From an uncultured Candidatus Rokubacteria bacterium (GTDB lineage: Bacteria > Methylomirabilota > Methylomirabilia > Rokubacteriales > DASRDR01), in assembly GCA_963708025.1 (NCBI GenBank), contig CAVPSB010000025.1, positions 256,001-320,000 on the forward strand: a stretch of 64,000 bases of DNA, read 5' to 3'. Shown here one piece after another: positions 4,657 to 60,861 of the stretch. Numbering within the stretch: the first letter of the stretch is position 1; each line of letters opens with the position of its first letter. Below the pieces are notes generated by a model that was not told where the DNA came from, ran no database searches, and was given only the letters and a program-made list of their open reading frames with translations. The translations under genes were made by a program, and so were the position numbers.

Positions 4657-4664
4657 GCATTCCA

Positions 4665-5430: not shown

Positions 5431-5704
5431 CCCCGGGGACTCGTGACGCCGTGGCGCGCGGCGGGAGGGCCGCTCCCGGCCGGGCGCGCCGCCCGCCACT
5501 TCGGGCCGGACGGCACGCTCCGGCCCGAGGCGCTCGCGCGGGTCAACCAGTGCCCGCCGACCGCCCTCCAGCCGTTCCCCGTGTACTCGTCGAGGGGTTG
5601 AGGCTCTCCGTCCGGTCCGGCCACTCGACGAGGAGGTAGAGGTGCGTCTCCGTGCGGAGGGCTCGGAGGCTCACCTCGACGCTTCCCTGGCGCCCTCGTG
5701 GGTC

Positions 5705-6673: not shown

Positions 6674-6703
6674 GGCACACCTCCCTGGGGAGTGCTTCCC
6701 CGT

Positions 6704-7946: not shown

Positions 7947-8194
7947 CGTGCGCTCCGGTCTCCCAGGAGCCCCCAGAAGACGTAGAGGATCACGCCGAGC
8001 AGGGTGAGGAAGACGGGAATCGCCACCAGCGAGATCCCGATGGAGGCCGACGGAACGTCGCCGAGCCGCCAGGCGGTGCGGATGAGGTGGCTGATCCAGG
8101 CGACGATGCCGCCGATGAAGAGGATGGCCACCGCCGCCAGCCCCCACTGGGTGGCCCGCACCGTCCGCTCGGACACGGGACTCGGGCTCGCCAT
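7943..8194 (-). CDS. small two-TM membrane protein
   Basis: MASPSPVSERT..., two hydrophobic helices, stop overlaps next start. Confidence 0.75.
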   Translation of the reverse strand: MASPSPVSERTVRATQWGLAAVAILFIGGIVAWISHLIRTAWRLGDVPSASIGISLVAIPVFLTLLGVILYVFWGLLGDRSAR

Positions 8195-8195
8195 G

Positions 8196-9551: not shown

Positions 9552-10227
9552 GGCCTTCTCCCTCGGTCAGGTAGATCACCTTCGGCTTGGTGCCCAGCTC
9601 CTCCTGGAGCCGGAAGGCGCGGGGGCTCCGGGCGAGCCGCGCGACCTCGCTCCCCGGGTCGGCGAGGTCCCCGAAGGTGATGGCCCGGGTCGGGCACGCC
9701 TCGGCGCAGGCCGGCACGTACTCCCCGGGCGCCAGCTCCCGCCGCTCGGCGAGGGCCCGCTCCCGGGCCCGTTGCAGCCGGTGATGGCAGAAGGTGCACT
9801 TCTCGACGACGCCCTTGGGCCGGATCGAGACGTCGGGGTTCTGCCCGGGCGCGTCCGTCTGGTAGCGACGCCAGTTGAAGTACTTGGCGTTGTACGGGCA
9901 GGCGGCCATGCAGAAGCGGCAGCCGATGCAGCGGGCGTAGATCTGGGCGACGATCCCCTCCGGGTTCCGATAGGTGGCGTACACGGGGCAGACCTTCGTG
10001 CAGGGCGGGTCGTCGCACTGGAGGCACGGCCGCGGCAGGAAGCGCTTCACCTCGCCGGGGTGCGCCTCGTCCTCCTCGGTGAGGACGTGCATCCAGCTGA
10101 TGATCCGCCCGCGGTGCGCCTCCTTCGCCCCGACGGCCGGGACGTTGTTCTCCGCCTTGCAGGCGATGACGCAGGCCTGGCAGCCGGTGCAGCGGTCGAG
10201 ATCGATCACCATCCCCCAGAGGGCCAT
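9544..10227 (-). CDS. 4Fe-4S dicluster subunit (NrfC/QrcC-like)
   Basis: CTGCQACVIAC, CLQCDDPPCTKVCP, CIGCRFCMAACP, KCTFC...PACAEACP. Confidence 0.95.
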   Translation of the reverse strand: MALWGMVIDLDRCTGCQACVIACKAENNVPAVGAKEAHRGRIISWMHVLTEEDEAHPGEVKRFLPRPCLQCDDPPCTKVCPVYATYRNPEGIVAQIYARCIGCRFCMAACPYNAKYFNWRRYQTDAPGQNPDVSIRPKGVVEKCTFCHHRLQRARERALAERRELAPGEYVPACAEACPTRAITFGDLADPGSEVARLARSPRAFRLQEELGTKPKVIYLTEGEGRG

Positions 10228-10231
10228 GGCC

Positions 10232-12646
10232 CTACGCCGTGCGGATCCTGACGCGGGTGGTGTTGAGGAGGCCGAAGCCCCGGAAGGGGTCGGCCTCGTG
10301 GGCGATGAGGTCGTTGGGGTTCGGGCCCTCGCCGCCGAAGAGGGGGATGTGGACGACGTCGGGGCGCGTGCCGGGATAGAGCCGCGCCGGGAGCCGGATC
10401 CGGCCCTTCGCGGACTCGACCCACACCGGATCCCCGTCCCTCACCCCCAGGCCGGCCGCCGTCTTCGGGTGGATCTCCACCCAGCCGTCCCAGGACGCCC
10501 GGACGTGGACCGCGGGCTGCTCCAGGAGCCAGGGCTGATTCTTCCCGCCTCCCGGCGGCCGGGTCACGAGGCGATAGGTGTTGAGGCGCAGGGGGAAGGC
10601 GCCCGGGTCCTCGACCGGCGGGATCGCCACGGCGGGGAGGTAGAGGAGATCGCCCCGATCCTGGCCCCCCAGGGCCTGCACGAAGGCCTCGCCCCTGGCG
10701 TCGCGCCGGATGGCCTCCTCGGTCAGGCGCTTGAGCGCGGTCGCGTACAGCTCGAGCTTTCCCGAGGGCGTCCTGAGGAGCGCCTTCCGGCTGACGGGCA
10801 GCCCCGTGGGATCCCACCAGGCGCCGCGCTTGCCGAGGGCGTCCCAGAAGTCGTCGTACGACTCGAACTCGGGAGCCCAGTACCCCTGCCGCTCGAGGAT
10901 CTTCCGGAGGGACTCCTCGGCGTGGACGGATACGACGTAGCCGCGTCCGGCCTCGTAGAGCCCGCGGGCGCCCTCGTAGAGGAGGTCCTCGTACTTCTCC
11001 CAGGGGAAGCTCCCGGCGAGGCTGCCGCCCAGGCCCTTCGCGAGCTGGAGGAGCACGTCGGCGGTGTCGCGGGTCTGATGGCGCGGCACCGCGGCCGGCC
11101 GGGCCAGGCTGAAGCAGGAGAAGCCGGCCAGGTGGGTCACGGGGTCGTCCTGCCACCGCTCGAGATAGGTGTGGTCCGGCAGGATCAGGTCGGCCACGGC
11201 GCTCGACTCGTCGAGCATCGGGGAGAAGCTGACGACGAACGGGACCCGCCGGAGGGCCTCGGCGAACTGCGCCTTCGCCGGATGATTGGCCAGGGGATTC
11301 GTCGCGAACAGGAAGAGGGCGTTGACCGGATACGGCGTCCCGGCGAGGATCCGCTCGGGGAGGGCCTGGGGCACGTCCGTGGCGAGCCGATACGGCCCCT
11401 GGCCGGCGCCGTCCAGGCGGGGCTCACCGGCGCCTCGCTTGGCGATCTCGTCGGGCGGGCCGGCGGGGAGCGGGGCCAGCGGCAGCTCGCCCTGGATCAG
11501 GAGCCCGCCCCGGGCCCCGATGCTCCCGGTGAGCGCGTTGAGGCTGTGGATCGCCATCCGGGTGTGGAGGTCGTCGCGGCCGTAGGCGGGGCCCCGCTCG
11601 CCCAGGACCACGGCCGGCTTGATCGTGCCCAGGTCGCGCGCGATCTCCAGAATGGTCTTCACCGGGACGCCGGTGGCCGCCGAGACGGTCAGCAGTCCGT
11701 ACTCCCTCAGGACCAGATTCTTGAACCCCTGAACCCGCCGGCCCGCGCCGTCGGTCCAGTCCTCGAACCCGAAGACGTGCTCCTCCACGAACTCCTGGTC
11801 GTAGAGCCCCTCGCGGATCATGGCGTTGGCGATACCGAGCGCCAGGATCCCGTCCGTCCCGGGGACGATGGGCACCCAGCGGTCCGCCTTGATCGCGGTG
11901 GGGGAGCGCCGGGGATCGACCTGGATGAACCGCCCGCGGGAGCCGTCGGCGCCGCCGCGGAGCCGGGCGAAGGCCAGCGAGGCGTGGACGGGACCGAGCC
12001 AGGCCTCCAGGAGGCCGACGCCGAAGGAGAGGATGAGCCGGGCCTCGCCGAGGTCGTAGCCCAGGGGGGCCGTCACACCCTGCATGAGCTGGTGGGCGAG
12101 GGCGGGCCTCTCCGGGGCGAGACAGCGGACGCGGACGTAGTTGGGCGTGCCGTAGGCCGCGGCGAAGCGCTTCCAGAGCGTGTCCCGGTACCCGCGGTAC
12201 TGGCCCCCCAGGATCGCCACCGTGTGCGCGAGCCCCTTCTGCCGGAGGTCGGCCAGACGGCCCCTCAGGAGCGTCAACGCCTCGTCCCAGCTCACGGGGC
12301 GGACGTGACCGCGCTCCCGGTCGCGCACCATGGGCCCCTTGAGGCGATCCTCGGCGTAGAGGAGCTGGAGCCCGCCGAAGGCCTTCGGGCAGAGGGCGCC
12401 GCGATTGATCGGATGGAGGGGGTTCCCCGCGAGCCCCGCCACCTCGCCGTCGAGCGTGCGGACCAGGAGCCCGCAGCCGCCCGGACACTGCTGGCAGATG
12501 GAGGGGACCTGGACCTCCTCGGGGGTGGCCCACCGGCCGAGCCCACGCCCGGCCTGTTCGGCCTTGGCCAGCGGGCCGCCGACCACGGCCGCCGCCCCCG
12601 CCGTCCCGCCCAGCGCCTGGAGGAACCCTCGTCGCGTGACGCGCAT
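10232..12646 (-). CDS. Tat-exported molybdopterin-oxidoreductase-family large subunit (QrcB-like)
   Basis: TRRGFL Tat motif, CQQCPGGC...CPK Fe-S motif, PGTDGILAL, ADLILPDHTYLE, C-terminal EIHPKTAAGLGVRDGD. Confidence 0.9.
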   Translation of the reverse strand: MRVTRRGFLQALGGTAGAAAVVGGPLAKAEQAGRGLGRWATPEEVQVPSICQQCPGGCGLLVRTLDGEVAGLAGNPLHPINRGALCPKAFGGLQLLYAEDRLKGPMVRDRERGHVRPVSWDEALTLLRGRLADLRQKGLAHTVAILGGQYRGYRDTLWKRFAAAYGTPNYVRVRCLAPERPALAHQLMQGVTAPLGYDLGEARLILSFGVGLLEAWLGPVHASLAFARLRGGADGSRGRFIQVDPRRSPTAIKADRWVPIVPGTDGILALGIANAMIREGLYDQEFVEEHVFGFEDWTDGAGRRVQGFKNLVLREYGLLTVSAATGVPVKTILEIARDLGTIKPAVVLGERGPAYGRDDLHTRMAIHSLNALTGSIGARGGLLIQGELPLAPLPAGPPDEIAKRGAGEPRLDGAGQGPYRLATDVPQALPERILAGTPYPVNALFLFATNPLANHPAKAQFAEALRRVPFVVSFSPMLDESSAVADLILPDHTYLERWQDDPVTHLAGFSCFSLARPAAVPRHQTRDTADVLLQLAKGLGGSLAGSFPWEKYEDLLYEGARGLYEAGRGYVVSVHAEESLRKILERQGYWAPEFESYDDFWDALGKRGAWWDPTGLPVSRKALLRTPSGKLELYATALKRLTEEAIRRDARGEAFVQALGGQDRGDLLYLPAVAIPPVEDPGAFPLRLNTYRLVTRPPGGGKNQPWLLEQPAVHVRASWDGWVEIHPKTAAGLGVRDGDPVWVESAKGRIRLPARLYPGTRPDVVHIPLFGGEGPNPNDLIAHEADPFRGFGLLNTTRVRIRTA

Positions 12647-12655
12647 CGTTCTCCC

Positions 12656-13223
12656 TCAGCGGTGGCAGGCGTTGCAGTCGGTGGAGACCTTCCGCCCCGC
12701 GGCCGCCCTCACCGGCTCCGCTCCCGGCGCCGGGGCCTCTGTGGGCCACTGCCACCGCTCGTGACAGCCGATGCAGTCGTCCATCCTGAGCGCCTTCAGC
12801 GGACGGGCCGGGGGACGGGTCAGCGTCTCCATGGGCCCGTGGCAGGTCTGGCACCTCACCTTCGCCACCGCCACGTGGACGCGGTGGGAGAAGAAGACAT
12901 GGGGCGGGAGCCGCCAGACCCGCTGCCAGGGGATCTCCCGGCCGTTCTCACCGAACGCCTGGAGCTTCTGCTCCTCCGCGCTCTTGGCCTGGGCGCCGGA
13001 GTGACAGGAGAGGCACTTCTTGGTGGAGGGGCGGCCGGCGGCGGCGCCCTTTTCCGCCCGGTCGTGGCAGGTCGTGCACTCGACCTTCTGGTCCTTCAGA
13101 TCGAGGTGCGTCTTGTGGGGGAACTCGATGGGCTGCTTCGATTGCCGGCTCCACCCAGCCCGCCCAGTAGCCCCAGGTCAGGACGAGCGCCAGCAACAGC
13201 GCCAGGCCGAGGGCGACCTTCAT
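12656..13223 (-). CDS. membrane-anchored pentaheme cytochrome c (ActA/QrcA-like), frameshift near 13155
   Basis: TM anchor, QPIEFPHKTH, CTTCH, CLSCH, FFSHRVH, CQTCH, CIGCH, CNACH. Confidence 0.9.
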
Positions 13224-13600
13224 GGCACGCGGTGTCGGGAGAGGACCGCATTCACGGTCTCCTCCAGCTGTCCGAGGGTGATCGGCTTCTCGAGGACAGC
13301 CACCACCAGACCTTCGGCTTTCGCCGCGTGGACCTCGGGCGTCGCGAGGGAAACGAGCGCGATGACGGAGACGTGGGGGAACTCGGCCCGGAGCCGGCGG
13401 ACTGTCCCGAGCTCCTCGGCCCCGAGCTCCTCGAGGTCCGTCACGACGATGGATACCGGGACCCGCTGGAGCCGGGACTCCCCTTCCGCCCAGCCCAACG
13501 CCGACGTCACCGGGACCCCGCCCCGCATGAGCGCCCGGGTCAGGCCCTGCAGCGTCGTGGCGTCGGGCGACACGACCAAGATCGATTCCGGTTGTCGCAT
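13220..13600 (-). CDS. stand-alone atypical receiver-domain protein
   Basis: ILVVSPD, IVVTDL, VLEKP; receiver fold with degenerate acidic pocket. Confidence 0.75.
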   Translation of the reverse strand: MRQPESILVVSPDATTLQGLTRALMRGGVPVTSALGWAEGESRLQRVPVSIVVTDLEELGAEELGTVRRLRAEFPHVSVIALVSLATPEVHAAKAEGLVVAVLEKPITLGQLEETVNAVLSRHRVP

Positions 13601-13618
13601 GGCGTTCGCATCCCAGGC

Positions 13619-13635
13619 AGCACGCCCCGTGCCAG
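13619..13635 (-). promoter_or_regulatory. sigma-54 (-24/-12) promoter
   Basis: Minus strand reads CTGGCACGGGGCGTGCT (GG-N10-GC), just upstream of the operon and next to an enhancer-binding protein gene. Confidence 0.8.
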
Positions 13636-13724
13636 CTCCCCGCCACCCGCGGCTTCGACGCGGAACCCTCTTCGGTGCGCGGAGTTCGGGGGCGAAGTCG
13701 GAAGGGGAGGGCGGGCCCTGGGAT

Positions 13725-13769
13725 TGTCAGATCGACCCTGTCGGTCGATCGAGTCCGGTCAATGCGACA
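13725..13769. promoter_or_regulatory. putative upstream activator sites for the sigma-54 activator
   Basis: TGTCAGATCGACC (13725-37) and GGTCAATGCGACA (13757-69) are related inverted copies 32 bp apart. Confidence 0.55.
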
Positions 13770-13775
13770 AAGGGG

Positions 13776-36743: not shown

Positions 36744-37223
36744 ATGCGGATCCTGCTGTCCCTGAACGTCAACGGCGAGGCCCACGAGGTGGCCGTGGCC
36801 GTGCACAAGACGTTGCTGGAGGTGCTGCGGGAGGACCTCGGGCTGACGGGGACGAAGCACGGGTGCGAGCTGGGGGAGTGCGGGACCTGCACGGTGCTGG
36901 TGGACGGGGAGCCGGTGCTGTCGTGCCTGGCGCTGCCGGTGGAGCTGGAAGGCTCGGAGATCCTGACGGTGGAGGGGATGGCGGGGGCGGGGGGGCTGCA
37001 CCCGCTGCAGCAGGCGTTCGCGGAGCTGGGGGCGGCGCAGTGCGGGTACTGCACGCCAGGGATCCTCTTGACCGCGAAGGCGCTCCTCGACACCGAGCCG
37101 CGGCCGACGCGGGACGGGATCCGGGCGGCGCTGGCGGGGAACCTCTGCCGCTGCACCGGGTACACGAAGATCCTGGATGCGGTGGAGCTGGCGGCGGGCC
37201 GGCTCGCGAAGGCCCGAGCATGA
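36744..37223 (+). CDS. hcrC: 2Fe-2S small subunit, xanthine-oxidase family (HcrC-like)
   Basis: GTKHGCELGECGTC, QCGYCTPG, NLCRCTGY. Confidence 0.85.
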   Translation: MRILLSLNVNGEAHEVAVAVHKTLLEVLREDLGLTGTKHGCELGECGTCTVLVDGEPVLSCLALPVELEGSEILTVEGMAGAGGLHPLQQAFAELGAAQCGYCTPGILLTAKALLDTEPRPTRDGIRAALAGNLCRCTGYTKILDAVELAAGRLAKARA

Positions 37224-39640
37224 GTGACCGCGAGCTGTCCGTCGTCGGGAAGCCGCTGCCGAAGGTGGATGCTTGGGCGAAGGTGACCGGGGAGACCCGG
37301 TTCGCCGACGACCTGGTACTGCCGCGGATGGCCTACGCGAAGATCCTGCGCGGCCAGCATCCCCACGCGCTGATCCGGAAGATCGACACGAGCCGGGCGG
37401 CGGCCCTTCCCGGCGTCTATGCCGTCATCACGGGGCGGGACTTCGCGCCGGTGAAGTTCGGGATCATGCCGGTGAGCCAGGACGAGGAGCCGCTCTGCCT
37501 GGAGAAGATCCGGTTCGTGGGAGACCCGGTGGCGGCGGTGGCGGCACAAGACGAAGAGACCGCCGAGCGGGCGATGCACCTGATCGACGTGGAGTACGAG
37601 CCGCTCCCGCCGCTGATGTCGATCGACCAGGCGCTCAAAGAGGGAAGCCACCGCATCCACGAGTACGGCGACGGCCACAACATCCACAAGCTGGTCTCGC
37701 TGGAGTTCGGCGACGTGGAGGAAGGCTTCCGCGAGGCGGACCTGGTGCGGGAGGACGTCTTCTTCTTCGAGGGGAACACGCACCTCCCGATGGAGCAGCA
37801 CGCGGCGCTGGCCCACGCGACCCTCGACGGCAAGGTGACCCTCTGGTCCTCGACCCAGACGCCGCACTACGTCCACCGCGCGGTGTCGAAGGTCCTCCAG
37901 CTCCCGATGAGCCACGTCCGGGTGATCGCGACCCCGAACGGCGGCGGCTTCGGTGGGAAGTCGGACCCCTTCAGCCACGAGATGGTGGTCTGCCGGCTGG
38001 CTCAGCTCACCGGACGGCCGGTGAAGACGACGCTGACCCGCGAGGAGGTCTTCTACACCCACCGCGGCCGCCACCCGGTGCTGATGTGGATCAAGTCGGG
38101 GGTGCGGAAGGACGGCGCGCTGCTGGCGATCCAATTCCGCTCCTTCCTGGACGGCGGGGCCTACGGCTCCTACGGCGTGGCCTCGACCTTCTACACGGGC
38201 GCGCTCCAGACGGTGACCTACAAGGTCCCGCGCTACAAGTTCGAGGGCTGCCGGGTCTTCACCAACAAGCCGCCGTGCGGCCCCAAGCGCGGCCACGGGA
38301 CGCCGCAGCCGCGCTTCGCCCTGGAGGTCCACCTGGACAAGATCGCCGAGCAGCTCGGCCTCGACCCGGCCGAGATGCGGCGGCGCCACGCGGTGGACGA
38401 GCATACCAAGACGGTGAACCACCTCACGATCACGACCTCGGGCCTCCGCGAGTGCCTGGACCGCGTGGTCGAGGCCTCGGGCTGGCGGGGCAAGCACGGT
38501 CAGCTCCCGGCCGGGCGCGGCATCGGGATCGCCGCCTCCTCCTACATCTCGGGGGCAGGGCTCCCGATCTACTGGAACGACATGCCGCACTCGGGCGTCA
38601 TGCTGAAGATCGACCGGGGCGGCGGGGTGGCGGTCTTCTGCGGCTCGACGGACATCGGCCAGGGCTCGGACTCGGTGCTGGCCTACGTAGTGGCCGAGGT
38701 GCTCGGCATCCGGCCCGAGGACATCCGGGTGGTGACGGCGGACACCGACCTGACGCCGGTGGACCTGGGCTCCTACTCCTCGCGGGTGACCCTGATGACC
38801 GGGAACGCCGCCAAGGAGGCGGCGGAGAAGCTGCGCGGCCAGCTCCTCGACGCGGCGGCGAAGAAGCTCGAGGTCTCGCCGGCCGACCTCGAGGCGCGCG
38901 ACCGGCGGATCTTCGTCCGCGATGACCCGGCCCGGGGGCTCGCCTTCGACGAGGCGGCGCGGCTGGCCGAGGCCGCCTACGGCACGCTCGTCTCGGCCGG
39001 CTCCTACACGCCGCCGAAGCGGGCCGCGAAGTTCAAGGGCGCGGGGGTGGGGCCGACGCCAGCCTACTCCTACTCGGCGTGCGTGACGGAGCTCGAGGTG
39101 GACCCGGGTACGGGGGAGATCCGGGTCGACCGGATCTGGATCGCCCACGACGGGGGGACGGCGATCAACCCGCTGCTGGTCGAGGGCCAGGTCGAGGGCT
39201 CGATCTACATGGGGCTCGGCGAGGTGCTGATGGAGGAGCAGGTCTTCCGCCACGGGCTCCACAAGATCCCCTCGCTGCTGGAGTACAAGAGCCCGACCAC
39301 GCTGGAGACGCCGGAGATCACGACGATCCTGGTCCAGACCCGCGACCCCGAGGGGCCGTTCGGGGCGAAGGAGGCGGGGCAGGGACCCCTCCTCCCGATC
39401 ATCCCGGCGGTGGCCAACGCGATCCACGATGCGGTGGGCGTGTGGATCGACGAGGTCCCGATCACGCCGGACAAGATCCTGAAGGCGCTCGACCTGAAAG
39501 CCAAGGGCCGGCCGCCGCGGGTCGGCCCCGAGCGCCTCCCCGACGTCCGCTTCCCGGAGCCGATCCGGGTGCCACCGCCGTGGGTGGACCCCGAGGGCCG
39601 GGCCTCGACGGCGATCCACAAGGAGACGCCGCGGCCATGA
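37220..39640 (+). CDS. hcrA: molybdopterin subunit, xanthine-oxidase family (4-hydroxybenzoyl-CoA reductase alpha-like)
   Basis: KVTGETRFADD, GGGFGGK, RGHG.PQ, DIGQGS, GSYSSR, VEGQVEG, GPFGAKEAGQ. Confidence 0.8.
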   Translation: MSDRELSVVGKPLPKVDAWAKVTGETRFADDLVLPRMAYAKILRGQHPHALIRKIDTSRAAALPGVYAVITGRDFAPVKFGIMPVSQDEEPLCLEKIRFVGDPVAAVAAQDEETAERAMHLIDVEYEPLPPLMSIDQALKEGSHRIHEYGDGHNIHKLVSLEFGDVEEGFREADLVREDVFFFEGNTHLPMEQHAALAHATLDGKVTLWSSTQTPHYVHRAVSKVLQLPMSHVRVIATPNGGGFGGKSDPFSHEMVVCRLAQLTGRPVKTTLTREEVFYTHRGRHPVLMWIKSGVRKDGALLAIQFRSFLDGGAYGSYGVASTFYTGALQTVTYKVPRYKFEGCRVFTNKPPCGPKRGHGTPQPRFALEVHLDKIAEQLGLDPAEMRRRHAVDEHTKTVNHLTITTSGLRECLDRVVEASGWRGKHGQLPAGRGIGIAASSYISGAGLPIYWNDMPHSGVMLKIDRGGGVAVFCGSTDIGQGSDSVLAYVVAEVLGIRPEDIRVVTADTDLTPVDLGSYSSRVTLMTGNAAKEAAEKLRGQLLDAAAKKLEVSPADLEARDRRIFVRDDPARGLAFDEAARLAEAAYGTLVSAGSYTPPKRAAKFKGAGVGPTPAYSYSACVTELEVDPGTGEIRVDRIWIAHDGGTAINPLLVEGQVEGSIYMGLGEVLMEEQVFRHGLHKIPSLLEYKSPTTLETPEITTILVQTRDPEGPFGAKEAGQGPLLPIIPAVANAIHDAVGVWIDEVPITPDKILKALDLKAKGRPPRVGPERLPDVRFPEPIRVPPPWVDPEGRASTAIHKETPRP

Positions 39641-39725
39641 TGCGGCTGCCGCCGTTCACCTACCTCGCCCCGAAACGGCTCGACGAGGCGGTGCGCCTCC
39701 TCGCCGAGCACGGCCCGGCCGCGAT
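39624..39725 (+). repeat. 102-bp direct repeat, copy 1 (hcrA stop and hcrB start; gives 36-aa truncated hcrB at 39637-39747)
   Basis: Identical to 40670-40771 except one base. Confidence 0.97.
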
Positions 39726-39750
39726 TCGGACGCTCGAGCAGCCGTGAGCG

Positions 39751-40338
39751 ATGCGCGATCGGCGGCCTCTCGTCGTGGTGATCGCCGGCCCCAACGGCGC
39801 CGGCAAGACGACGCTGGCGCCGCGTCTCCTGCAGGATGCGCTGACAGTGGCGGAGTTCGTGAACGCGGACCCCATCGCGATGGGGCTCTCCGCCTTTCGA
39901 CCGGAGTCGGTGGCGATGGCAGCCGGACGACTGATGCTCGCGCGCATGAAGACGCTGGCCAGGACGCGCCAGGAGTTCGCCTTCGAGACGACGCTGGCCA
40001 GCCGCAGCTTCGCGCCGTGGCTCACGGGCCTGCAGGCGTCGGGTTACCGCGTGCACCTCGCCTTTCTCTCGCTGTCACATCCCGACCTGGCCGTGGCCCG
40101 GGTGGCAGAGCGGGTGCGACAGGGGGGCCACGACGTGCCTGAACCCGTCGTGCGACGGCGCTTCGCGGCCGGGCTCAGGAATTTCTTCACCATGTACCGG
40201 GACGTGGCCGACACGTGGCGGATGTTCGACAACTCGGCGGCGAGCGGCCCTCGTCTGATCGCAGCGGGCGGGGCCGGGCAGGCGGTACAGGTCCTCGATG
40301 CCGGAGCCTGGGCCGGTCTGCTGGAGGGGCAGCGATGA
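39751..40338 (+). CDS. zeta-toxin-like P-loop ATPase/kinase
   Basis: IAGPNGAGKTT, FVNAD, FAFETTL, RVAERVRQGGHDVP, FDNS. Confidence 0.88.
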   Translation: MRDRRPLVVVIAGPNGAGKTTLAPRLLQDALTVAEFVNADPIAMGLSAFRPESVAMAAGRLMLARMKTLARTRQEFAFETTLASRSFAPWLTGLQASGYRVHLAFLSLSHPDLAVARVAERVRQGGHDVPEPVVRRRFAAGLRNFFTMYRDVADTWRMFDNSAASGPRLIAAGGAGQAVQVLDAGAWAGLLEGQR

Positions 40339-40686
40339 CCACGTCGGGTGATCCCGAAGTGGACCCGCTCGATCGCGTCGAGGATCTGCCGCGCATCATG
40401 AAGGCCATGACGAGCTGCGGTTCGCGAGGCGCTGCTGCGCCACAAGCTGCTGGGGAATCCGGTCGCGGTCTGGCGTGACGGGCGCGTCGTGTGGCTGGCG
40501 CCCGAGGAAATCCCGGTGGATTTCGACGACGAGCCGGACGAGCCGGACCGCGAGCCGCCGCCGGTCTCCGAAGCCCGGGCCTCTACGGTCGTCGACGCCG
40601 GCAAGGACCGCCGACCCCCAGGTGGGGGGGTTCAGGGGGGGAGTGGTTGGGACTCCCCCCCTGATGGACAGACGCCGCGGCCATGA
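40335..40686 (+). CDS. small partner (antitoxin-like) protein, frameshift near 40412
   Basis: ATGA overlap with the ATPase; VREALLRHKLLGNPVAVWRDGRVVWLAPEEI. Confidence 0.65.
40632..40664. repeat. REP-like hairpin
   Basis: TCAGGGGGGGAGT-GGTTGGG-ACTCCCCCCCTGA, 13-bp perfect stem. Confidence 0.8.
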
Positions 40687-40771
40687 TGCGGCTGCCGCCG
40701 TTCACCTACCTCGCCCCGAGACGGCTCGACGAGGCGGTGCGCCTCCTCGCCGAGCACGGCCCGGCCGCGAT
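40670..40771 (+). repeat. 102-bp direct repeat, copy 2
   Basis: Matches 39624-39725. Confidence 0.97.
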
Positions 40772-41732
40772 GGTGGTGGCGGGGGGGACCGACCTCTACC
40801 CCAACATGAAGCGGCGCCAGTTCGAGCCGACCGTCCTGGTCGGGCTCCGTGGCATCCGCGACCTGGCCGGCATCGCCGGGAGCGCGCGCGAGGGCATGAC
40901 GATCGGCGCCGGCGCCACGCTGACCCGTGTCGCGGAGCACGCGGAGATCGCCACGCACTACCCGGCGCTGGCCCGGGCGGCCGGCGTGGTCTCGACGCCC
41001 CAGCTCCGCAACATGGGGACGCTCGGCGGCAACGTGTGCGTGGACACGCGCTGCAACTACTACAACCAGTCCTTCGAGTGGCGGAAGTCGATCGGCTTCT
41101 GCATGAAGAAGGACGGCGACATCTGTCTGGTCGCGCCGGGGAGCCCCCGCTGCTGGGCGGTGTCGTCGTCGGACACGGCGCCGGTGCTGTGGAGCCTGGG
41201 TGCCGAGGTGACGCTGGCCGGCCCGCAGGGCGAGCGGCGGATCCCGATCTCGGCGCTCTACCAGGACGACGGCATCCAGTACCTCCGGAAGACGCCGGAC
41301 GAGATCGTGAGCGACATCCGGCTCCCCCCAATGACGACAAATGACGGCTGGCGGGCGACCTACTGGAAGCTCCGCCGCCGGGGCGCCTTCGACTTCCCGG
41401 TCCTGGGCGTGGCGGCCGCGGTGCGGCTAGAGGGCGACGTCTGCCGGGAGGCGCGGATCGTGCTCGGCGCGGTGGCCTCGACGCCCCGCGAGGCGCCGGA
41501 GGCCGCGGCGGCGCTGGCCGGCCAGCGGCTAACCCCCGAGGTGATCGAGCGCGCGGCCGACCTGGCGGCCCGGCCCTCGAAGCCGCTCGACAACACCGAC
41601 ATGGTCTACCACTACCGGAAGAAGGTGACGCGCGTCTACGTGGCACGGGCCCTGAAGGAGTTGGCCGGCCTGCCGCTCGACGGCGTCTGGCCGCCGGGCA
41701 TGTCGGCCCGCCCCGTCGAGGAGGGCCGGTAG
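40683..41732 (+). CDS. hcrB: FAD subunit with 4Fe-4S insertion (4-hydroxybenzoyl-CoA reductase beta-like)
   Basis: AGGTDLYPNMK, QLRNMGTLGGN, Cys insert RCNYYNQ..C.KKDGDIC..C. Confidence 0.85.
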   Translation: MMRLPPFTYLAPRRLDEAVRLLAEHGPAAMVVAGGTDLYPNMKRRQFEPTVLVGLRGIRDLAGIAGSAREGMTIGAGATLTRVAEHAEIATHYPALARAAGVVSTPQLRNMGTLGGNVCVDTRCNYYNQSFEWRKSIGFCMKKDGDICLVAPGSPRCWAVSSSDTAPVLWSLGAEVTLAGPQGERRIPISALYQDDGIQYLRKTPDEIVSDIRLPPMTTNDGWRATYWKLRRRGAFDFPVLGVAAAVRLEGDVCREARIVLGAVASTPREAPEAAAALAGQRLTPEVIERAADLAARPSKPLDNTDMVYHYRKKVTRVYVARALKELAGLPLDGVWPPGMSARPVEEGR

Positions 41733-41933
41733 ATGGACGGGCTCGGCAGCATGTCGTTCCGCTGCGAGATCTGCCTGCGACTGGTCGGCGTGGCGGCAGC
41801 CGGTCGCTGTGCGAAGTGCGGGAAGATCATGTGCCGGCGGCATCTCTGGGGTGACTGTCCCGGCCACAGCCTGACCCGGCAGCTCCAGGGGGTCTGGCAG
41901 CGCACGATGCGGCGAATGAAGGAGCGGCATTGA
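41733..41933 (+). CDS. small Cys/His-rich (zinc-finger-like) protein
   Basis: CEIC...CAKCGKIMCRRH...C; fills the hcrB-boxC gap, GAGGAGG RBS. Confidence 0.65.
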   Translation: MDGLGSMSFRCEICLRLVGVAAAGRCAKCGKIMCRRHLWGDCPGHSLTRQLQGVWQRTMRRMKERH

Positions 41934-41936
41934 GGC

Positions 41937-43624
41937 ATGGCTGAGAATCAGAGCACCTGGGTGGACTTCCGGACCGAGCCGGCGCGCTACAAGCACTGGA
42001 GCCTGGCCATCGACGGCCGGGTGGCGACCCTCGCGATGAACGTCCAGGAGGACGCGGGGCTCCGGCCCGGCTACGAGCTGAAGCTCAACTCGTACGACCT
42101 GGGCGTGGACGTCGAGCTGTACGACGCGGTCCAGCGGCTCCGGTTCGAGCACCCGGAGGTCGGCGCCGTCGTCATCCGCTCGGCCAAGGAGCGGGTGTTC
42201 TGCGCGGGGGCCAACATCCGGATGCTCAGCCAGTCGAGCCACGGCTGGAAGGTGAACTTCTGCAAGTTCACCAACGAGACCCGGAACGCGATCGAGGAGG
42301 CCAGCGCCGAGTCGGGCCAGCGCTACCTCACCGCGGTGAACGGGCCGTGCGCGGGCGGTGGCTACGAGATCGCGCTGGCCACCGACTGGATCGTCATGGC
42401 CGACGACGGGAACACCTCGGTCGCGCTCCCCGAGGTGCCGCTCCTGGCCGTGCTGCCGGGGACCGGCGGTCTCACCCGCCTGGTGGACAAGCGGAAGGTC
42501 CGGCGCGACCGGGCGGACTTCTTCTGCACGGTGGAGGAGGGCGTCAAGGGCCAGCGGGCACTCGACTGGGGGCTGGTGGACGAGCTGGTGCCGCGGACCC
42601 GCCTGGAGGAGACGGCGCGCCAGCGCGCGGCCGAGTCGGCGGCGCGGAGCGACCGGCCGGCCGGCGCCCGCGGCATCGCGCTGACGATGCTCGCCCGCAC
42701 CATCGAGGGCGACGAGATCCACTACGCCCATGTGACCTGCCGCCTGGACCGCGCCCGCGGGGTCGCCGAGATCACCGTCCGGGCGCCCGGGACCGACCCG
42801 CCGGCCGACGTCGCCGCGATCCACGCCCAGGGCTGCGCCTTCTGGCCGCTCGCCCTCGCCCGGGAGCTGGACGACCTGATCCTCCACCTCCGGACCAACG
42901 AGGAGCAGGTCGGGCTCTGGGTCCTCCGGACCGAGGGGAATGGGGAGAGCGGCGGGAGCGCCGACCGGGTCGAGGCCTACGACCGGCTGCTCGCCACCCA
43001 CGCCAAGGACTGGCTGGTCCGCGAGATCCGCCTCTACCTGCGGCGCACGCTCAAGCGCCTGGACGCCTCCTCGCGCTCGATCTTCGCGCTGGTCGAGCCC
43101 GGCTCCTGCTTCGCCGGCACGCTGCTCGAGCTGGCGCTGGCCGCCGACCGCGCCTACATGCTGGACGGGTCCCGCGAGGGCGACGACCGGCCGCCGGCCA
43201 CCCTGCGCCTGACCGAGGCGAACTTCGGCGCCTACCCCATGCCCAACGGGCTGACGCGGCTCCAGAGCCGGTTCCTCGGCGAGCCGGGGCGGGTCGAGGA
43301 GCGGCGGGGGCGGATCGGGGAGGACCTGGACGCGGCGGCCGCCGACAAGGCCGGCCTCGTCACGTTCACGCCCGACGACATCGACTGGGACGACGAGGTC
43401 CGCCTGGCGATCGAGGCGCGCGCGGCCTTCTCGCCGGACGCGCTGACCGGCATGGAGGCCTCGCTCCGCTTCGGCGGACCGGAGACCGTGGAGACGAAGA
43501 TCTTCGGCCGCCTGTCGGCCTGGCAGAACTGGATCTTCCAGCGCCCGAACGCGGTCGGGGAGAAGGGCGCGCTGCGCGTCTACGGCACCGGCCAGCGCGC
43601 CGAGTTCGACCGGAGGAGAGTGTG

Positions 43625-43625
<1 letters not shown>
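41937..43625 (+). CDS. boxC: 2,3-epoxybenzoyl-CoA dihydrolase
   Basis: YELKLNSYDLGVDVEL, KVNFCKFTNETRN, LPEVPLLAVLPGTGG, RLSAWQNWIFQRPNAVG. Confidence 0.96.
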
Positions 43626-45064
<1,439 letters not shown>

Positions 45065-45086
45065 GAGCGCGTGAAGGAATCGGGTC

Positions 45087-45148
45087 CCTCCGGCTCCCCC
45101 CTCCCCCCCGGTGGGTGGGGAAGGGGGGCTGGGGGGTGGGCGGGAGGT
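45087..45148. repeat. C-rich/G-rich REP-like element
   Basis: Near copy at 63264-63326. Confidence 0.75.
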
Positions 45149-45217
45149 CTCGAACTGAGTCGGGAAGGACGTGAAGCGATCGCCGTGCTCGGGCAGCCTG
45201 GAGGTGGCGGCGGCCGG

Positions 45218-45290
45218 CCCCCCTCCCCCCGCCAGAGGCCGAAGGCCGTCCGATCAGTCGGGAGGGGTCGGGGGTGGGGGAGGTCTCGAA
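45218..45290. repeat. second related REP-like element
   Basis: CCCCTCCC...GGGAGGGG stem; shares the GGGAGGTCTCGAA tail with 45142-45154. Confidence 0.6.
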
Positions 45291-45297
45291 TAGTCCG

Positions 45298-45852
45298 ATG
45301 AAGCTCGGGGCACGGATCAAGGGGCTCCGGACGGAGCGCGGCATTCGCCAGAACGAGCTGGCGCAGAAGGCCGGGCTGACGGCGAGCCTCGTCTCCCAGA
45401 TCGAGTCGGACAAACTCTCGCCCTCGCTCCACACGCTCGGCCGGCTGGCCGGCGCCCTCGGGGTCCCGATCGGGGCCCTCTTCGAGCAGGCGCCGAACGG
45501 CCGGGTCCACGTGGGGCGGCAGAAGGACCACGCGGTGGTGAGCTTCGACGGCTCGACCGAGCGCTGGGAGGTGCTGTCGGCCGGCCTCTTCCGCGGCAAG
45601 GTGCGGGCGGTCGTCTCGACGCTGCGGGGGCGCGGGAAGAGCGTCCCGCCCGAGCGTGTCCAGATCGAGCCGGGCCAGATGAAGCTGATGTACGTCGTCC
45701 GCGGCAAGGTGGCGCTCCACTACAACGGCGAGCGCCACCTGATGGAGGCCGGCGACTCCGCCTACCTGGACGGCGGCGTGCCCCACACCTGGGAGAACCT
45801 GGGGGCGGGCGAGGCCCGGACCCTCTGGGTCATCACCGGCAAGGACGAATGA
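45298..45852 (+). CDS. XRE-family HTH + cupin transcriptional regulator
   Basis: LGARIKGLR..ELAQKAGLTASLVSQIE..PSL; GDSAYLDGGVPHTWEN. Confidence 0.92.
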   Translation: MKLGARIKGLRTERGIRQNELAQKAGLTASLVSQIESDKLSPSLHTLGRLAGALGVPIGALFEQAPNGRVHVGRQKDHAVVSFDGSTERWEVLSAGLFRGKVRAVVSTLRGRGKSVPPERVQIEPGQMKLMYVVRGKVALHYNGERHLMEAGDSAYLDGGVPHTWENLGAGEARTLWVITGKDE

Positions 45853-47186
45853 GCGCGCTCCCGCTGATCCAGGTGGATGCGTTCTACGACCGCGAGCGCG
45901 AGACGGCGCCGCCGGAGCAGCTGCGCGCCTGGCAGTGGGAGCGGCTCACCGCCGGCCTGGCCGAGGTCTGGGCGTCGAACCCGTTCTGGCGGGCACGCCT
46001 CGCGGCGGCCGGCCTCCGCGACCCCCGCGACGTCGCCTCGTGGGACGACTTCGCCCGGCTGCCGCGGCTCGAGAAGCCGGAGCTGGGGGCCGACCAGGCC
46101 GCGCGCCCGCCGTTCGGCACGAACCTGACGTACCCGCTGGAGCGCTACGTCCGCGCCTTCCAGACCTCGGGGACCACCGGCCCGCCGATCCGCTGGCTGG
46201 AGACGGAGGAGTCGTGGGCCTGGTGGGCGCGCTGCTGGGTGTACGTCTTCCGGGCCGCCGGGCTCGGGCCGGGGGACCGGCTCTTCTTCCCGTTCTCCTT
46301 CGGCCTCTTCATCGGCTTCTGGGCCGGCCTCGAGGGGGCCCGGATGCTCGGCGCGCTGGCGCTCCCCGGCGGCGGTCAGGACTCGCCGACGCGCGTCCAC
46401 TGGATCCGGGAGCTGGGCGCGACCGCGCTGGTCTGCACGCCGTCCTACGGCCTCCACCTGGCCGAGGTCGCGATGGGGCAGGGGATCGACCCCGCGAAGC
46501 TCGGCGTCCGCACGACGGTCCACGCCGGCGAGCCGGGTGCCGGCATCCCGGCGGTCCGCCAGCGGCTGGAGACGCTGTGGGGCGCGCGGGCGTACGACCA
46601 CGCCGGCATGACGGAGGTCGGCGCCTACAGCTTCGCCTGCCCGGTCCAGTCGGGCCTCCACGTCAACGAGGTCGAGTTCATCGCCGAGGTGCTGGATCCG
46701 GAGACGGGTCGGCCGATCGCGCCCGGCGAGCTCGGCGAGCTGACGCTCACCAACCTGGGCCGGTGGGGGGCGCCGGTGCTCCGCTACCGCACCGGCGACC
46801 GCGTCCGGCTGGCGGCCGCGCCGTGCCCCTGCGGCCGGACGTTCGCCAGCCTCGAGGGCGGCATCCTCGGCCGCGTTGACGACATGCTGATCGTCCGCGG
46901 CGTCAACGTCTTCCCCTCGGCGCTGGAAGGGATCGTCCGGCAGTTCGACGCGGTGGACGAGTTCCAGATCGAGGTCTACCGGCGGGGCGCGATGGACGAG
47001 GTCCGGCTCCTGCTGGAGATCGACGGGGGGCACCGCGCCCCGGACGCGGTCACCGGGACGTGCGACGCCGTCGTCGAGGCCGTCCGCCGGAACATCGGCA
47101 TCCGGATCGAGGCCGCCCCGGTGCCGGCCCGGAGCCTCCCGCGCTACGAGCTGAAGGCCCGCCGTCTGGTGCGGCGCGACGCCTGA
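45849..47186 (+). CDS. phenylacetate-CoA ligase (PaaK) family protein
   Basis: TSGTTG, CTPSY, AGEP, GMTE, RYRTGD, GRVDDMLIVRGVNVFPS. Confidence 0.9.
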   Translation: MSALPLIQVDAFYDRERETAPPEQLRAWQWERLTAGLAEVWASNPFWRARLAAAGLRDPRDVASWDDFARLPRLEKPELGADQAARPPFGTNLTYPLERYVRAFQTSGTTGPPIRWLETEESWAWWARCWVYVFRAAGLGPGDRLFFPFSFGLFIGFWAGLEGARMLGALALPGGGQDSPTRVHWIRELGATALVCTPSYGLHLAEVAMGQGIDPAKLGVRTTVHAGEPGAGIPAVRQRLETLWGARAYDHAGMTEVGAYSFACPVQSGLHVNEVEFIAEVLDPETGRPIAPGELGELTLTNLGRWGAPVLRYRTGDRVRLAAAPCPCGRTFASLEGGILGRVDDMLIVRGVNVFPSALEGIVRQFDAVDEFQIEVYRRGAMDEVRLLLEIDGGHRAPDAVTGTCDAVVEAVRRNIGIRIEAAPVPARSLPRYELKARRLVRRDA

Positions 47187-60336: not shown

Positions 60337-60861
60337 TCAGGGCCGGCCGGGCAGTCGGAGAATCGCGCCGCAGTGCCGGCAGGTCCGCAGGTCCTCGCTG
60401 GCGTTGAAGCGCTCGATGACCTCCTTGAGCTGGGTCTCGATGTCCGCGCACGCGAACGCCACCTCGTGGAGCTTCCCCTGACAGCCCTCGCAGAACCAGG
60501 CCAGGCGGTCCAGCTCGTCGGGGCGCCGCTTGCGCTCGATGACCAGGCCCCAGGTGCCGGGCGGCCGCACCGGGCAGTGCGGGGTCCCGGCCGGGCAGAG
60601 CAGGACCTCGCCCTCGCGCACCCGGGCCGCCTGCCGCTGGCCCCCGGCGTCGATGAACTCGACCGTGATGTCGCCCTCGAGCTGGTAGAAGATCTCGTCG
60701 CCCGGGTCGATGTGGAAGTCGTTCCGGGCGTTCGGCCCCCGGACGATCTGGAAGATGAACTCGCTCTCCGGGAAGACCTCCTTGTTCGCGACGGGCGGCT
60801 TGAAGAGCTGCGGGTTGTCGGTGATCCAGCGCATCAGGTGCAGCGGGAGCAGGGCCGGCAT
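60337..60861 (-). CDS. nbaC: 3-hydroxyanthranilate 3,4-dioxygenase
   Basis: KPPVANK, GPNARNDFH, EIFYQLEG, PHCP.R, CEGC and CRHC rubredoxin-like site. Confidence 0.92.
   Translation of the reverse strand: MPALLPLHLMRWITDNPQLFKPPVANKEVFPESEFIFQIVRGPNARNDFHIDPGDEIFYQLEGDITVEFIDAGGQRQAARVREGEVLLCPAGTPHCPVRPPGTWGLVIERKRRPDELDRLAWFCEGCQGKLHEVAFACADIETQLKEVIERFNASEDLRTCRHCGAILRLPGRP

Follow-up and report, generated by a model that had tools for sequence, protein, structure and literature searches.

A rokubacterial operon joining an Hcr-clade molybdenum enzyme to O2-dependent boxCB, a candidate micro-oxic hybrid route for hydroxyaryl-CoA

In the genome of a soil Methylomirabilota bacterium (Rokubacteria; 8.17 Mb, 99.67% complete, 8.18% contamination), genes for the three subunits of an Hcr-like molybdenum enzyme share one operon with boxC and boxB, although BoxB needs O2. 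We lean, by a modest margin over even chances, towards reading this operon as a micro-oxic hybrid route that would convert a hydroxyaryl-CoA to benzoyl-CoA, epoxidise it and open the ring, drawing on electron donors not linked to the operon. A relative of an "anaerobic" molybdenum enzyme placed together with O2-dependent BoxB/BoxC would point to an undescribed low-oxygen route for plant phenolic acids, and a literature search found no published description of the hcrCAB-boxCB pairing. The features of the region, within the 64,000-nucleotide stretch of DNA that was analysed (the window), are:

36744-37223, + strand: hcrC-like gamma subunit, 2x[2Fe-2S] (Pfam Fer2_2, Fer2; best family TIGR03193, 187.8 bits, cut-off 257.8)
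37220-39640, + strand: hcrA-like alpha subunit, molybdopterin (Pfam MoCoBD_1, MoCoBD_2, Ald_Xan_dh_C; TIGR03194, 886.8 bits, cut-off 994.55)
39624-39725, no strand: direct repeat copy 1, 102 nt (repeat search, spacing 1046)
39751-40338, + strand: zeta-toxin/AAA_33-like P-loop gene (Pfam Zeta_toxin 46.9 bits, AAA_33 36.8 bits)
40670-40771, no strand: direct repeat copy 2, 102 nt, 99% identical to copy 1 and overlapping the intact hcrB start
40683-41732, + strand: hcrB-like beta subunit, FAD (Pfam FAD_binding_5, CO_deh_flav_C; TIGR03195, 305.3 bits, cut-off 404.55)
41733-41933, + strand: 66-aa Cys-rich ORF, no family above cut-off
41937-43625, + strand: boxC, 2,3-epoxybenzoyl-CoA dihydrolase (TIGR03222, 917.3 bits, cut-off 712.3)
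43625-45064, + strand: boxB, diiron benzoyl-CoA 2,3-epoxidase (TIGR03225, 874 bits, cut-off 499.1)
45274-45852, + strand: XRE-HTH and cupin regulator (Pfam HTH_3, Cupin_2)
45849-47186, + strand: PaaK-like aryl-CoA ligase (AMP-binding, AMP-binding_C_2; TIGR02155, 226 bits, cut-off 646)

The order hcrC-hcrA-hcrB-boxC-boxB-regulator-ligase, proposed in an earlier note on this DNA, was confirmed at these coordinates, with every gene on the + strand. Three junctions (hcrC/hcrA, boxC/boxB and regulator/ligase) have overlapping start and stop codons, and boxB is single copy in the host genome. Compared with the box pathway of Azoarcus/Aromatoleum evansii, which comprises BoxA, BoxB, BoxC, BoxD, BoxR and a benzoate-CoA ligase, the host has clear equivalogs of BoxB and BoxC, with translational coupling between them, but BoxA and BoxD are missing, the ligase is PaaK-like and an Hcr-clade enzyme sits in the operon. 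The regulator combines XRE and cupin domains, unlike the XRE and shikimate-kinase-like BoxR of alphaproteobacterial loci. The ligase is not PaaK proper; its TIGR02155 score falls below the cut-off.

We placed the molybdenum enzyme within its family. Hcr models were the top NCBIfam match for all three subunits, yet each scored below its equivalog cut-off. For the hcrA-like protein, the family next to TIGR03194 reached 565 bits, and the match to Thauera 1RM6_A (653 bits) stood well above the next PDB chain (303). An extra Cys loop of the beta subunit defines Hcr; when aligned to 1RM6_B, the hcrB-like protein keeps every Cys of this [4Fe-4S] loop, which was found at 20/20 loci of the first locus set. 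When 136 cluster representatives were arranged in a tree, the query hcrA grouped in a 15-tip clade with P0139, the only one of 37 scanned representatives passing TIGR03194 (1301 bits) and 44% identical to the host HcrA. These data place the enzyme, as judged from sequence, in the Hcr clade. The catalytic Glu of the XO family is Gln in the hcrA-like protein (motif GPFGAKEAGQGP from residue 712) and, within the first locus set, in 20/20 copies from Methylomirabilota (families f1, f2 and f5, plus f7). Glu is retained in Thauera Hcr and, on alignment, in the chains of nicotinate dehydrogenase, quinoline oxidoreductase and CO dehydrogenase. Thus, the ordinary Hcr that would have undercut the earlier note's proposal is not what we found, given the scores below three equivalog cut-offs and the replaced Glu, and since all 20 copies carry Gln, the chemistry or substrate of the enzyme may differ from those of Thauera Hcr. 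The scores of all three subunits below the NCBIfam equivalog cut-offs, the 44% identity to the sole representative passing TIGR03194 and the Gln, unlike Thauera Hcr, are also points against a micro-oxic route.

The enzyme resembles Thauera aromatica HcrCAB (PDB 1RM6/1SB3) and Rhodopseudomonas palustris HbaBCD in having three subunits, Mo cofactor, FAD, 2x[2Fe-2S] and the extra [4Fe-4S] Cys loop of the beta subunit. Hcr is the top PDB and NCBIfam match for all its subunits, and the query joins the equivalog representative in one clade. It differs in the sub-cut-off scores, the limited identity to that representative, the Gln and an operon shared with O2-dependent boxCB. Oah of the anaerobic benzoyl-CoA pathway was not found in the host genome. 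At Rhodospirillaceae loci an IOR-like 2-oxoacid oxidoreductase precedes hcrC, whereas no ferredoxin-reducing enzyme lies near the host operon; the only C..C..C...CP ferredoxin motif of the window belongs to a - strand gene near 9930 that resembles QrcC/ActB. A further point against the micro-oxic route concerns the O2 demand of BoxB, as Thauera Hcr is described as oxygen-sensitive and fed by reduced ferredoxin (PMC12771579). The same paper presents the Enterocloster bolteae urolithin C 9-dehydroxylase, Ucdh, as an XO-family reductive dehydroxylase whose target is a phenol para to an electron-withdrawing group, 32.7% identical to 4-HBCR, and as showing that NADH rather than ferredoxin can serve XO-family dehydroxylases (PMC12771579). 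Ucdh differs in its non-CoA substrate and its gut-anaerobe host.

To place the operon among relatives, we surveyed 251 Methylomirabilota genomes, fetched 40 related loci and counted as informative the boxB loci with enough contig (n = 29). BoxB exceeded its cut-off in 144/251 genomes, and hcrCAB lay directly upstream of boxB on the same strand at 29/29 informative loci, so that the linkage is not sporadic, although these loci are kin and may reflect one ancestral operon. Identity was 76-90% for hcrC (27 loci whose contig reaches it) and 64-91% for the HcrA-like Mo subunit. The regulator lies 3' of boxB in family f1, whereas family f2 has it between hcrB and boxC, and the hcrCAB-boxCB adjacency outlasted both this rearrangement and divergence to 64% HcrA identity. 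Ligases accompany the cluster: the PaaK-like one, kept nearby even without boxCB (locus L034), and a TIGR02262-family ligase in 21/41 loci (667 bits, cut-off 375). Apart from the core genes and ligases, every neighbouring gene is limited to at most 7 of the 41 loci, and no ferredoxin or ferredoxin-reducing enzyme is conserved near the operon. In Rokubacteriales, boxCB always came with hcrCAB at the 29 informative loci, while hcrCAB occurs without boxCB, accompanied by the regulator and ligases at L034 and L051; these two loci indicate that the Mo enzyme has its own role on an aryl-CoA. In other orders (L035, L036) hcrCAB adjoins a short BoxB-like paralogue (37% identity) and a crotonase.

The two operon parts have different closest kin, since HcrA is closest to Ignavibacteriales/Bacteroidota sequences (57% identity) and BoxB to alphaproteobacterial ones. 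Among Alphaproteobacteria, 27/79 BoxB genomes have Hcr-type beta subunits versus 5/322 genomes without BoxB; these subunits lie 5-15 kb from boxCB in G339, G505 and G251, and the Hcr genes in this neighbourhood are differently related, which suggests that the Hcr-Box association was assembled separately there. These observations bear on the idea that the Mo enzyme dehydroxylates or reduces an unrelated aryl-CoA, its adjacency to boxCB being inherited order free of metabolic coupling. The failure of the enzyme to qualify as an Hcr equivalog, the occurrence of hcrCAB without boxCB or beside the BoxB-like paralogue and a possible single ancestral arrangement behind the 29 loci would fit this idea, but the persistence of the adjacency through rearrangement and divergence, the similar alphaproteobacterial neighbourhood built from other Hcr genes and the strong concentration of Hcr-type subunits in BoxB genomes make it improbable.

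The earlier note had also reported no boxA, and none was found in the window or anywhere in the genome, where the best BoxA match reached 23 bits and covered the ferredoxin part only. Nor is BoxA routinely present elsewhere in the phylum, as 0/251 of its genomes exceeded the cut-off. As a general rule, the premise of a BoxB dependent on BoxA does not stand, since 64/78 BoxB-bearing alphaproteobacterial genomes lack BoxA, and 38 of those 64 also lack an Hcr-type subunit. With 38/78 genomes devoid of both, BoxB requires neither, and because such genomes are common, a missing BoxA is no sign that Hcr is the donor.

BoxA carries FAD and two [4Fe-4S], and the Hcr-like complex could be, or could also be, the electron-delivery partner of BoxB in its place, passing electrons from NAD(P)H or ferredoxin through the FAD/[4Fe-4S] beta subunit to the diiron centre. 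We regard this as unlikely, though it accounts for several patterns: BoxB in 144 phylum genomes and BoxA in none, the constant company of hcrCAB with boxCB in Rokubacteriales but not the reverse, a neighbourhood with no other conserved redox gene (41 loci) and a Mo site departing from known enzymes. BoxA and Hcr are also nearly exclusive in BoxB-bearing Alphaproteobacteria (BoxA in 1/27 Hcr-bearing versus 13/51 Hcr-less genomes), and in the BoxB tree 9/13 BoxA-linked BoxBs fall in one 14-tip clade free of Hcr-bearing genomes, while rokubacterial BoxB sits among BoxA-less BoxBs, with 7/11 nearest tips from Hcr-bearing genomes. However, the counted genomes are kin and not independent, the 38 genomes lacking both imply other donors, a flavodoxin adjoins boxB at one BoxA-less locus, G215 and G171 keep hcrCAB and ligases without boxCB, and such conservation of the Mo subunit would be needless for a mere electron shuttle.

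BoxD (NF008868) was likewise found in 0/251 phylum genomes at E<=1e-70, the best host match reaching 140 bits against a cut-off of 444 with five candidates scored per genome. In Azoarcus, NADPH closes the loop between BoxD and BoxA, and with both missing here the Mo enzyme might oxidise a Box product (3,4-dehydroadipyl-CoA semialdehyde or formate), stand in for BoxD and return two electrons to BoxB. Aldehyde oxidoreductases do appear among the XO-family PDB matches, and the Mo complex directly adjoins boxC and boxB. We nevertheless consider this very unlikely, as the general-base Glu of oxidative XO-family members is Gln in the hcrA-like protein and the nearest characterised relative is a reductase. 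The BoxD search also scored only those five candidates per genome, about seven ALDH-family genes exist in the host, and 21/25 BoxA-less alphaproteobacterial BoxB genomes lack BoxD with or without Hcr, so generic aldehyde dehydrogenases probably suffice.

The micro-oxic route, one of the two options in the earlier note, is the best supported reading, whereas the option of Hcr replacing BoxA had rested on the failed premise. In the micro-oxic route, an aryl-CoA ligase would form the thioester, the PaaK-like enzyme in the window or a benzoate-CoA-ligase-family enzyme available in family f2 and elsewhere in the host genome. The Mo/FAD/Fe-S enzyme would then strip off a hydroxyl of the ring, with 4-hydroxybenzoyl-CoA and its para-OH as the likeliest target, to give benzoyl-CoA, from which BoxB with O2 would make the epoxide; ring opening by BoxC would yield formate and 3,4-dehydroadipyl-CoA semialdehyde. 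Electrons for BoxB and oxidation of the semialdehyde would come from enzymes encoded outside the operon, as must apply likewise in many lineages lacking BoxA and BoxD. We infer the substrate, the reductive direction, oxygen tolerance and the electron donors, while the gene content and order, the family placement, the [4Fe-4S] loop, the Gln, the phylum-wide linkage and the lack of BoxA and BoxD are observed. Substrate supply alone does not require the constant pairing in Rokubacteriales, because benzoate could enter directly.

The earlier gene list, correct for the core, had overlooked a 1,046-bp insertion that separates hcrA from hcrB, carries the zeta-toxin/AAA_33-like gene and has a copy of the direct repeat on either side. 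Repeat copy 1 includes a shortened second version of the beginning of hcrB (39637-39747), in which a stop follows 36 codons. The zeta-toxin/AAA_33-like gene is single copy in the host genome, gave no tblastn match among the 40 related loci and does not belong to the conserved operon. The "small Cys protein" listed earlier does correspond to an ORF, but an unconserved one, with no tblastn match in the same 40 loci, and the junction that holds it is variable, with differing cargo genes there in other family-f1 genomes.

The operon runs along the + strand of the window, whose G+C content is about 70%; its genes and the elements that interrupt them are listed below.

Features of the hcr-box operon and their family scores (bits against cut-off)
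36744-47186, + throughout: hcr-box operon stretch
+: hcrC-like gene, gamma subunit with 2x[2Fe-2S]; TIGR03193, 187.8 against 257.8
+: hcrA-like gene, alpha subunit with the Mo cofactor; TIGR03194, 886.8 against 994.55
39624-39725 and 40670-40771: direct repeat copies, duplicating the hcrA-end/hcrB-start junction
39751-40338, inside the insertion: zeta-toxin/AAA_33-like P-loop gene (Pfam)
+: hcrB-like gene, FAD beta subunit; TIGR03195, 305.3 against 404.55
41733-41933, +: 66-codon Cys-rich ORF
+: boxC, dihydrolase; 917.3 against 712.3
+: boxB, diiron epoxidase; 874 against 499.1
+: XRE-HTH/cupin regulator; HTH_3 plus Cupin_2 (Pfam)
+: PaaK-like ligase; TIGR02155, 226.1 against 646.3, and NF041878, 240.3 against 700, both under cut-off

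BoxB and BoxC are clear equivalogs, since both scores exceed their cut-offs. The Pfam domains of the Mo-enzyme trio match the three-subunit make-up of 4-hydroxybenzoyl-CoA reductase (Hcr or 4-HBCR; Mo alpha, FAD beta and 2x[2Fe-2S] gamma), and the models of this enzyme score best for all three subunits, yet under the curated cut-offs. Three gene pairs, hcrC/hcrA, boxC/boxB and regulator/ligase, share bases between the stop of one gene and the start of the next. The regulator differs from BoxR of the Box pathway, which joins an XRE-HTH to a shikimate-kinase-like domain, whereas the window protein has HTH_3 plus Cupin_2; SKI-type regulators were found in four of the scanned alphaproteobacterial box loci.

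Next, we asked what kind of Mo enzyme the operon encodes. The window alpha subunit scored 653 bits to the Thauera Hcr chain 1RM6_A, with the second-best chain at 303, and the HcrB alignment to the Thauera chain 1RM6_B spans the Cys-rich loop with every Cys kept; this loop, which would bind a [4Fe-4S] cluster, was present in 20/20 loci of the first set of related loci. The library search with HcrA returned 150 proteins as representatives at 50% identity, and among the 37 scanned only P0139 passed TIGR03194 (1301 bits, 44% identical to the query). In the FastTree phylogeny of 136 full-length representatives, midpoint-rooted and with support values not inspected, the query and P0139 fall within one 15-tip clade. 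Sister to the query is P0121, 57% identical to it, in which the gamma and alpha subunits are fused and which occurs in Ignavibacteriales and Bacteroidota MAGs. At the aligned position that we take to be the catalytic Glu (general base) of the XO family, Glu is found in the Thauera Hcr, nicotinate dehydrogenase, quinoline oxidoreductase and CO dehydrogenase chains and Gln in the window (GPFGAKEAGQGP). Gln occupies this column in 20/20 Methylomirabilota loci of the first set, spanning the four families f1, f2, f5 and f7, and Glu is kept in the alphaproteobacterial and Ignavibacteriales HcrA copies. Among the 70 representatives listed, most have Glu, Gln appears only in the query cluster, P0123 and P0151, and four others have Arg, Met or Leu. 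Together, the scores, the tree and the Glu-to-Gln change place the window enzyme in the Hcr clade but not as an Hcr equivalog. Its earlier description as an hcrCAB-like reductase therefore stands with regard to the clade and the retained [4Fe-4S] loop but needs qualifying, as all three subunits lie under the equivalog cut-offs and Glu is replaced by Gln. This invariant change is a concrete residue to probe and the distinguishing mark of the locus.

The gene order proposed in the earlier note omitted the gap between hcrA and hcrB, a 1,046-bp insertion with a zeta-toxin-like gene, flanked by a 102-nt direct repeat whose copies are 99% identical. Within the first repeat copy the beginning of hcrB is present a second time in truncated form, and hcrB itself is intact despite the insertion. 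A short ORF 3' of the zeta-toxin-like gene overlaps its stop (ATGA), with an apparent frame change into a second, antitoxin-like reading. Sequencing depth over the insertion (39859-40560) was very low in all four runs, which gave only short contigs from relatives, none spanning the operon, and RNA library X20 gave short contigs that match stretches of hcrA, boxB and the ligase at 90-100%. These data show neither transcription nor an allele that lacks the insertion. Neither the zeta-toxin-like gene nor the 66-aa Cys ORF had a tblastn match in 40 related loci. At the hcrB-boxC junction, other f1 genomes carry a nitroreductase-like ORF, a low-molecular-weight phosphatase-motif ORF of low GC3 or a 170-aa ORF (loci L019, L020, L021, L037 and L045, judged from sequence by eye), and this junction looks like an insertion hot spot within the operon. 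Given that the small Cys ORF matched none of the searched loci and that the junction cargo varies, we do not count it as part of the system, although it had been listed as an operon member. For want of any tblastn match in relatives, we also rejected the idea that it connects Hcr with BoxB in the manner of a rubredoxin.

The lack of boxA in the window was borne out at the level of both the genome and the phylum. The host genome (8.17 Mb in 49 contigs, 99.67% complete, 8.18% contamination) has one boxB copy; the best match to BoxA, the NADPH-dependent reductase with FAD and two [4Fe-4S] clusters, reached 23 bits in a profile search, over the ferredoxin part only, and the best match to BoxD (NF008868) 140.5 bits against a cut-off of 444. 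It encodes 17 full-length XDH-family large subunits, among which the window copy is by a wide margin the best Hcr match (887 bits; second best, 632). The phylum sample comprised 251 Methylomirabilota genomes, mostly MAGs, and its tallies include G217, G218 and G076, which are flagged as unpublished and from which no loci were fetched. BoxB was over the cut-off in 144/251 and BoxA in 0/251, the best BoxA match (90 bits) covering the FNR-like half only. At least 140/251 genomes carry an HcrA-like gene (E<=1e-200; best four candidates per genome scored), and TIGR03194 was passed by none among these best four candidates. Among the best five candidates per genome, BoxD (NF008868, E<=1e-70) was found in 0/251, with a model that does recognize the gene next to boxB in locus L108 (730 bits).

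Linkage was examined in 40 fetched loci searched with the window proteins (tblastn). In 17/20 loci of the first set, hcrC-hcrA-hcrB and boxC-boxB lie on one strand, with the regulator 3' of boxB in f1 and between hcrB and boxC in f2. Downstream of boxB, f2 loci carry first a gene of the benzoate-CoA-ligase family (TIGR02262, 667 bits; cut-off 375) and next the PaaK-like ligase; the host genome has an orthologue of the former, 75% identical, on contig C16. In the second set, 13 loci had been picked because the phylum search had given no hcrA beside boxB, and even there hcrA and hcrB were present in 12/13, whole, cut by a contig end or as frame-shifted pieces; the thirteenth contig (L042) stops within boxC. 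Over both sets, hcrCAB lies upstream of boxB in 29/29 informative loci, and the hcr-box linkage seen in the window thus holds for the informative boxB loci of the phylum, in which no sampled genome has BoxA over the cut-off. Two loci carry hcrCAB without boxCB: L034 (G215), with a ligase, hcrCAB, the regulator, a PaaK-like ligase, a crotonase and an SDR, and L051 (G171). In two others, L035 (f7, G022, 1249-11254) and L036 (f5, G250, 764-8039), a Gln-type hcrCAB is found near a crotonase of 264-289 aa and a short BoxB-like diiron paralogue (371-395 aa, 37% identical to BoxB; 213 bits for the L035 copy against the TIGR03225 cut-off of 499); L035 has two benzoate-CoA-ligase-family genes, and neither BoxC nor a reductase gene was found in these two loci. 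Apart from core genes and ligases, no neighbour recurs in more than 7/41 loci, and no ferredoxin or reductase is conserved in the vicinity.

A sample of 401 alphaproteobacterial genomes provided the comparison outside the phylum. BoxB was present in 79 of them at E<=1e-100 (76 over the cut-off), of which 78 were kept after G493, flagged as unpublished, was dropped following the BoxB step. BoxA was over the cut-off in 14/78, always adjoining boxB, and these matches serve as a positive control for the model. In this group boxB usually occurs without BoxA (64/78). The Hcr-type beta subunit was found in 27/78, 18 of them over the cut-off, and at the genome level it follows BoxB (27/79 BoxB genomes against 5/322 other Alphaproteobacteria), although these ratios are not test statistics, since the genomes are related to one another. 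BoxA and Hcr occur together in one genome only. BoxD was present in 4/25 BoxA-less BoxB genomes and absent from 21/25, and nine BoxA-less loci that we inspected had a flavodoxin beside boxB in one case (L101, G511) and a BoxR-type regulator, a ligase or nothing obvious in the others. The textbook BoxA/BoxD set is a minority arrangement in the sampled groups (BoxA in 14/78 and 0/251; BoxD in 4/25 BoxA-less genomes and in 0/251 among the best five candidates per genome).

These counts weigh on one explanation of the operon, namely that the Hcr-clade Mo/FAD/Fe-S complex is a dedicated redox partner of BoxB in Methylomirabilota, standing in for BoxA, and perhaps also for BoxD, in a Box pathway that tolerates O2. 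Rokubacteriales boxCB was never seen without hcrCAB, Hcr and BoxA are nearly exclusive, and the beta subunit would carry BoxA-like cofactors, which gives such a replacement some support. Its main premise, that BoxB needs BoxA as its electron source, has nevertheless been lost: 64/78 BoxB Alphaproteobacteria lack BoxA, and 38 of the 78 have neither BoxA nor Hcr. For this reason we regard the replacement as unlikely, and we are just as doubtful of its specific form, in which electrons would reach the diiron epoxidase through the FAD/[4Fe-4S] beta subunit and the altered, Gln-bearing Mo site would possibly act on a second substrate.

The BoxB tree (95 sequences, 23 Rokubacterial and 72 alphaproteobacterial; FastTree, midpoint-rooted, support values not inspected) recovered Rokubacterial BoxB as monophyletic and placed among BoxA-less alphaproteobacterial BoxBs. 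Hcr-bearing genomes account for 7/11 of its nearest tips, including G339 and G505, in which 5-7 kb separate hcr from boxCB, and 9/13 BoxA-linked BoxBs fall in one 14-tip clade without any Hcr-bearing genome. As the nearest kin of the window HcrA are from Ignavibacteriales and those of its BoxB are alphaproteobacterial, the operon was put together from parts; transfer of Hcr and BoxB together as one module was rejected because their closest relatives differ. Judging from sequence relationships, the Hcr-Box neighbourhood arose more than once.

On balance, we lean slightly towards a hybrid micro-oxic route as the simplest functional link, in which the Hcr-like enzyme would make benzoyl-CoA and BoxB, which requires O2, would use that product. 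Four observations fit this reading: ligases accompany the cluster, hcrCAB and ligases also occur where boxCB is missing, Hcr and BoxB are associated across genomes, and BoxB is often found in genomes that have neither BoxA nor Hcr. An electron loop that the Mo enzyme would close by oxidizing the BoxC product would suit a system from which BoxD is missing too, but BoxD is commonly lacking elsewhere and the Mo site has lost the general-base Glu that such an oxidation would call on, which makes the loop very improbable. Hcr, which dehydroxylates 4-hydroxybenzoyl-CoA to benzoyl-CoA with electrons from ferredoxin, is usually assigned to anaerobic aromatic catabolism and considered oxygen-sensitive. 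By pairing an Hcr-type enzyme with the O2-needing BoxB, and being kept across an abundant soil order, the operon predicts an oxygen-tolerant enzyme of the Hcr type. A further prediction is that phenolic acids from lignin are broken down at low oxygen as CoA thioesters, without passing through protocatechuate.

In the literature searched, we found no published description of an Hcr-Box operon or of a Rokubacterial benzoyl-CoA pathway. According to PMC12771579, just two reductive dehydroxylases are known to date in the XO family, 4-HBCR, which is oxygen-sensitive and takes electrons from reduced ferredoxin, and Ucdh, which uses NADH; Ucdh was expressed successfully with an XdhC-type chaperone in an MCD-overproducing E. 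coli, a strain type exemplified by TP1000. The relevant section of PMC4782131 lists a BCL-BoxB-BoxC cluster (BCL, benzoate-CoA ligase) and an Hcr in SAR324 bins as separate items, with the link not drawn there, and Box clusters without BoxA are regarded as incomplete in the corresponding part of PMC10803450.

Of the 41 loci found via P0121 in other phyla, none has boxB or boxC in the fetched flanks. Two Rhodospirillaceae MAGs of that set (L068/G251, 6326-13771; L067/G252) carry boxC-boxB-BCL about 12 kb from hcrCAB, lack BoxA, and encode directly upstream of hcrC an IOR-like 2-oxoacid:ferredoxin oxidoreductase (721-aa TPP subunit and 479-aa POR/DUF6537 subunit), which could supply Hcr with low-potential electrons in a cluster of aerobic type. 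The host genome itself has one FdxA-type ferredoxin of 88 aa (C11) and three AOR-family loci. Its contig C21 (52693-61574; positions 4694-13575 of L057) bears genes that score best to benzoyl-CoA reductase subunit models, all under cut-off (BcrB-like 319 against 487, BcrC-like 298 against 421, activase/BcrD-like 196 against 313), and that are predicted to encode an enzyme of the Bcr/2-hydroxyacyl-CoA-dehydratase family in a genome without Oah of the anaerobic benzoyl-CoA pathway (best match 73 bits against 464).

The host genome has a second XDH-family trio at C12:60815-68327, with an HcrA paralogue of 37.5% identity that retains Glu. The trio adjoins another PaaK-like ligase (40% identical) and may be a further aryl-CoA-modifying Mo enzyme. 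Rokubacteria are regarded as aerobic to microaerobic soil bacteria, and at 5705-12646 on the - strand the window has genes for cytochrome c, DsrP/NrfD-like, QrcC-like Fe-S and QrcB/molybdopterin-like subunits, a cluster that looks like alternative complex III. Finally, the window encodes a 3-hydroxyanthranilate 3,4-dioxygenase (60337-60861, - strand; TIGR03037, 191 bits; cut-off 146), with luciferase-like and FAD-oxidase genes as its neighbours.
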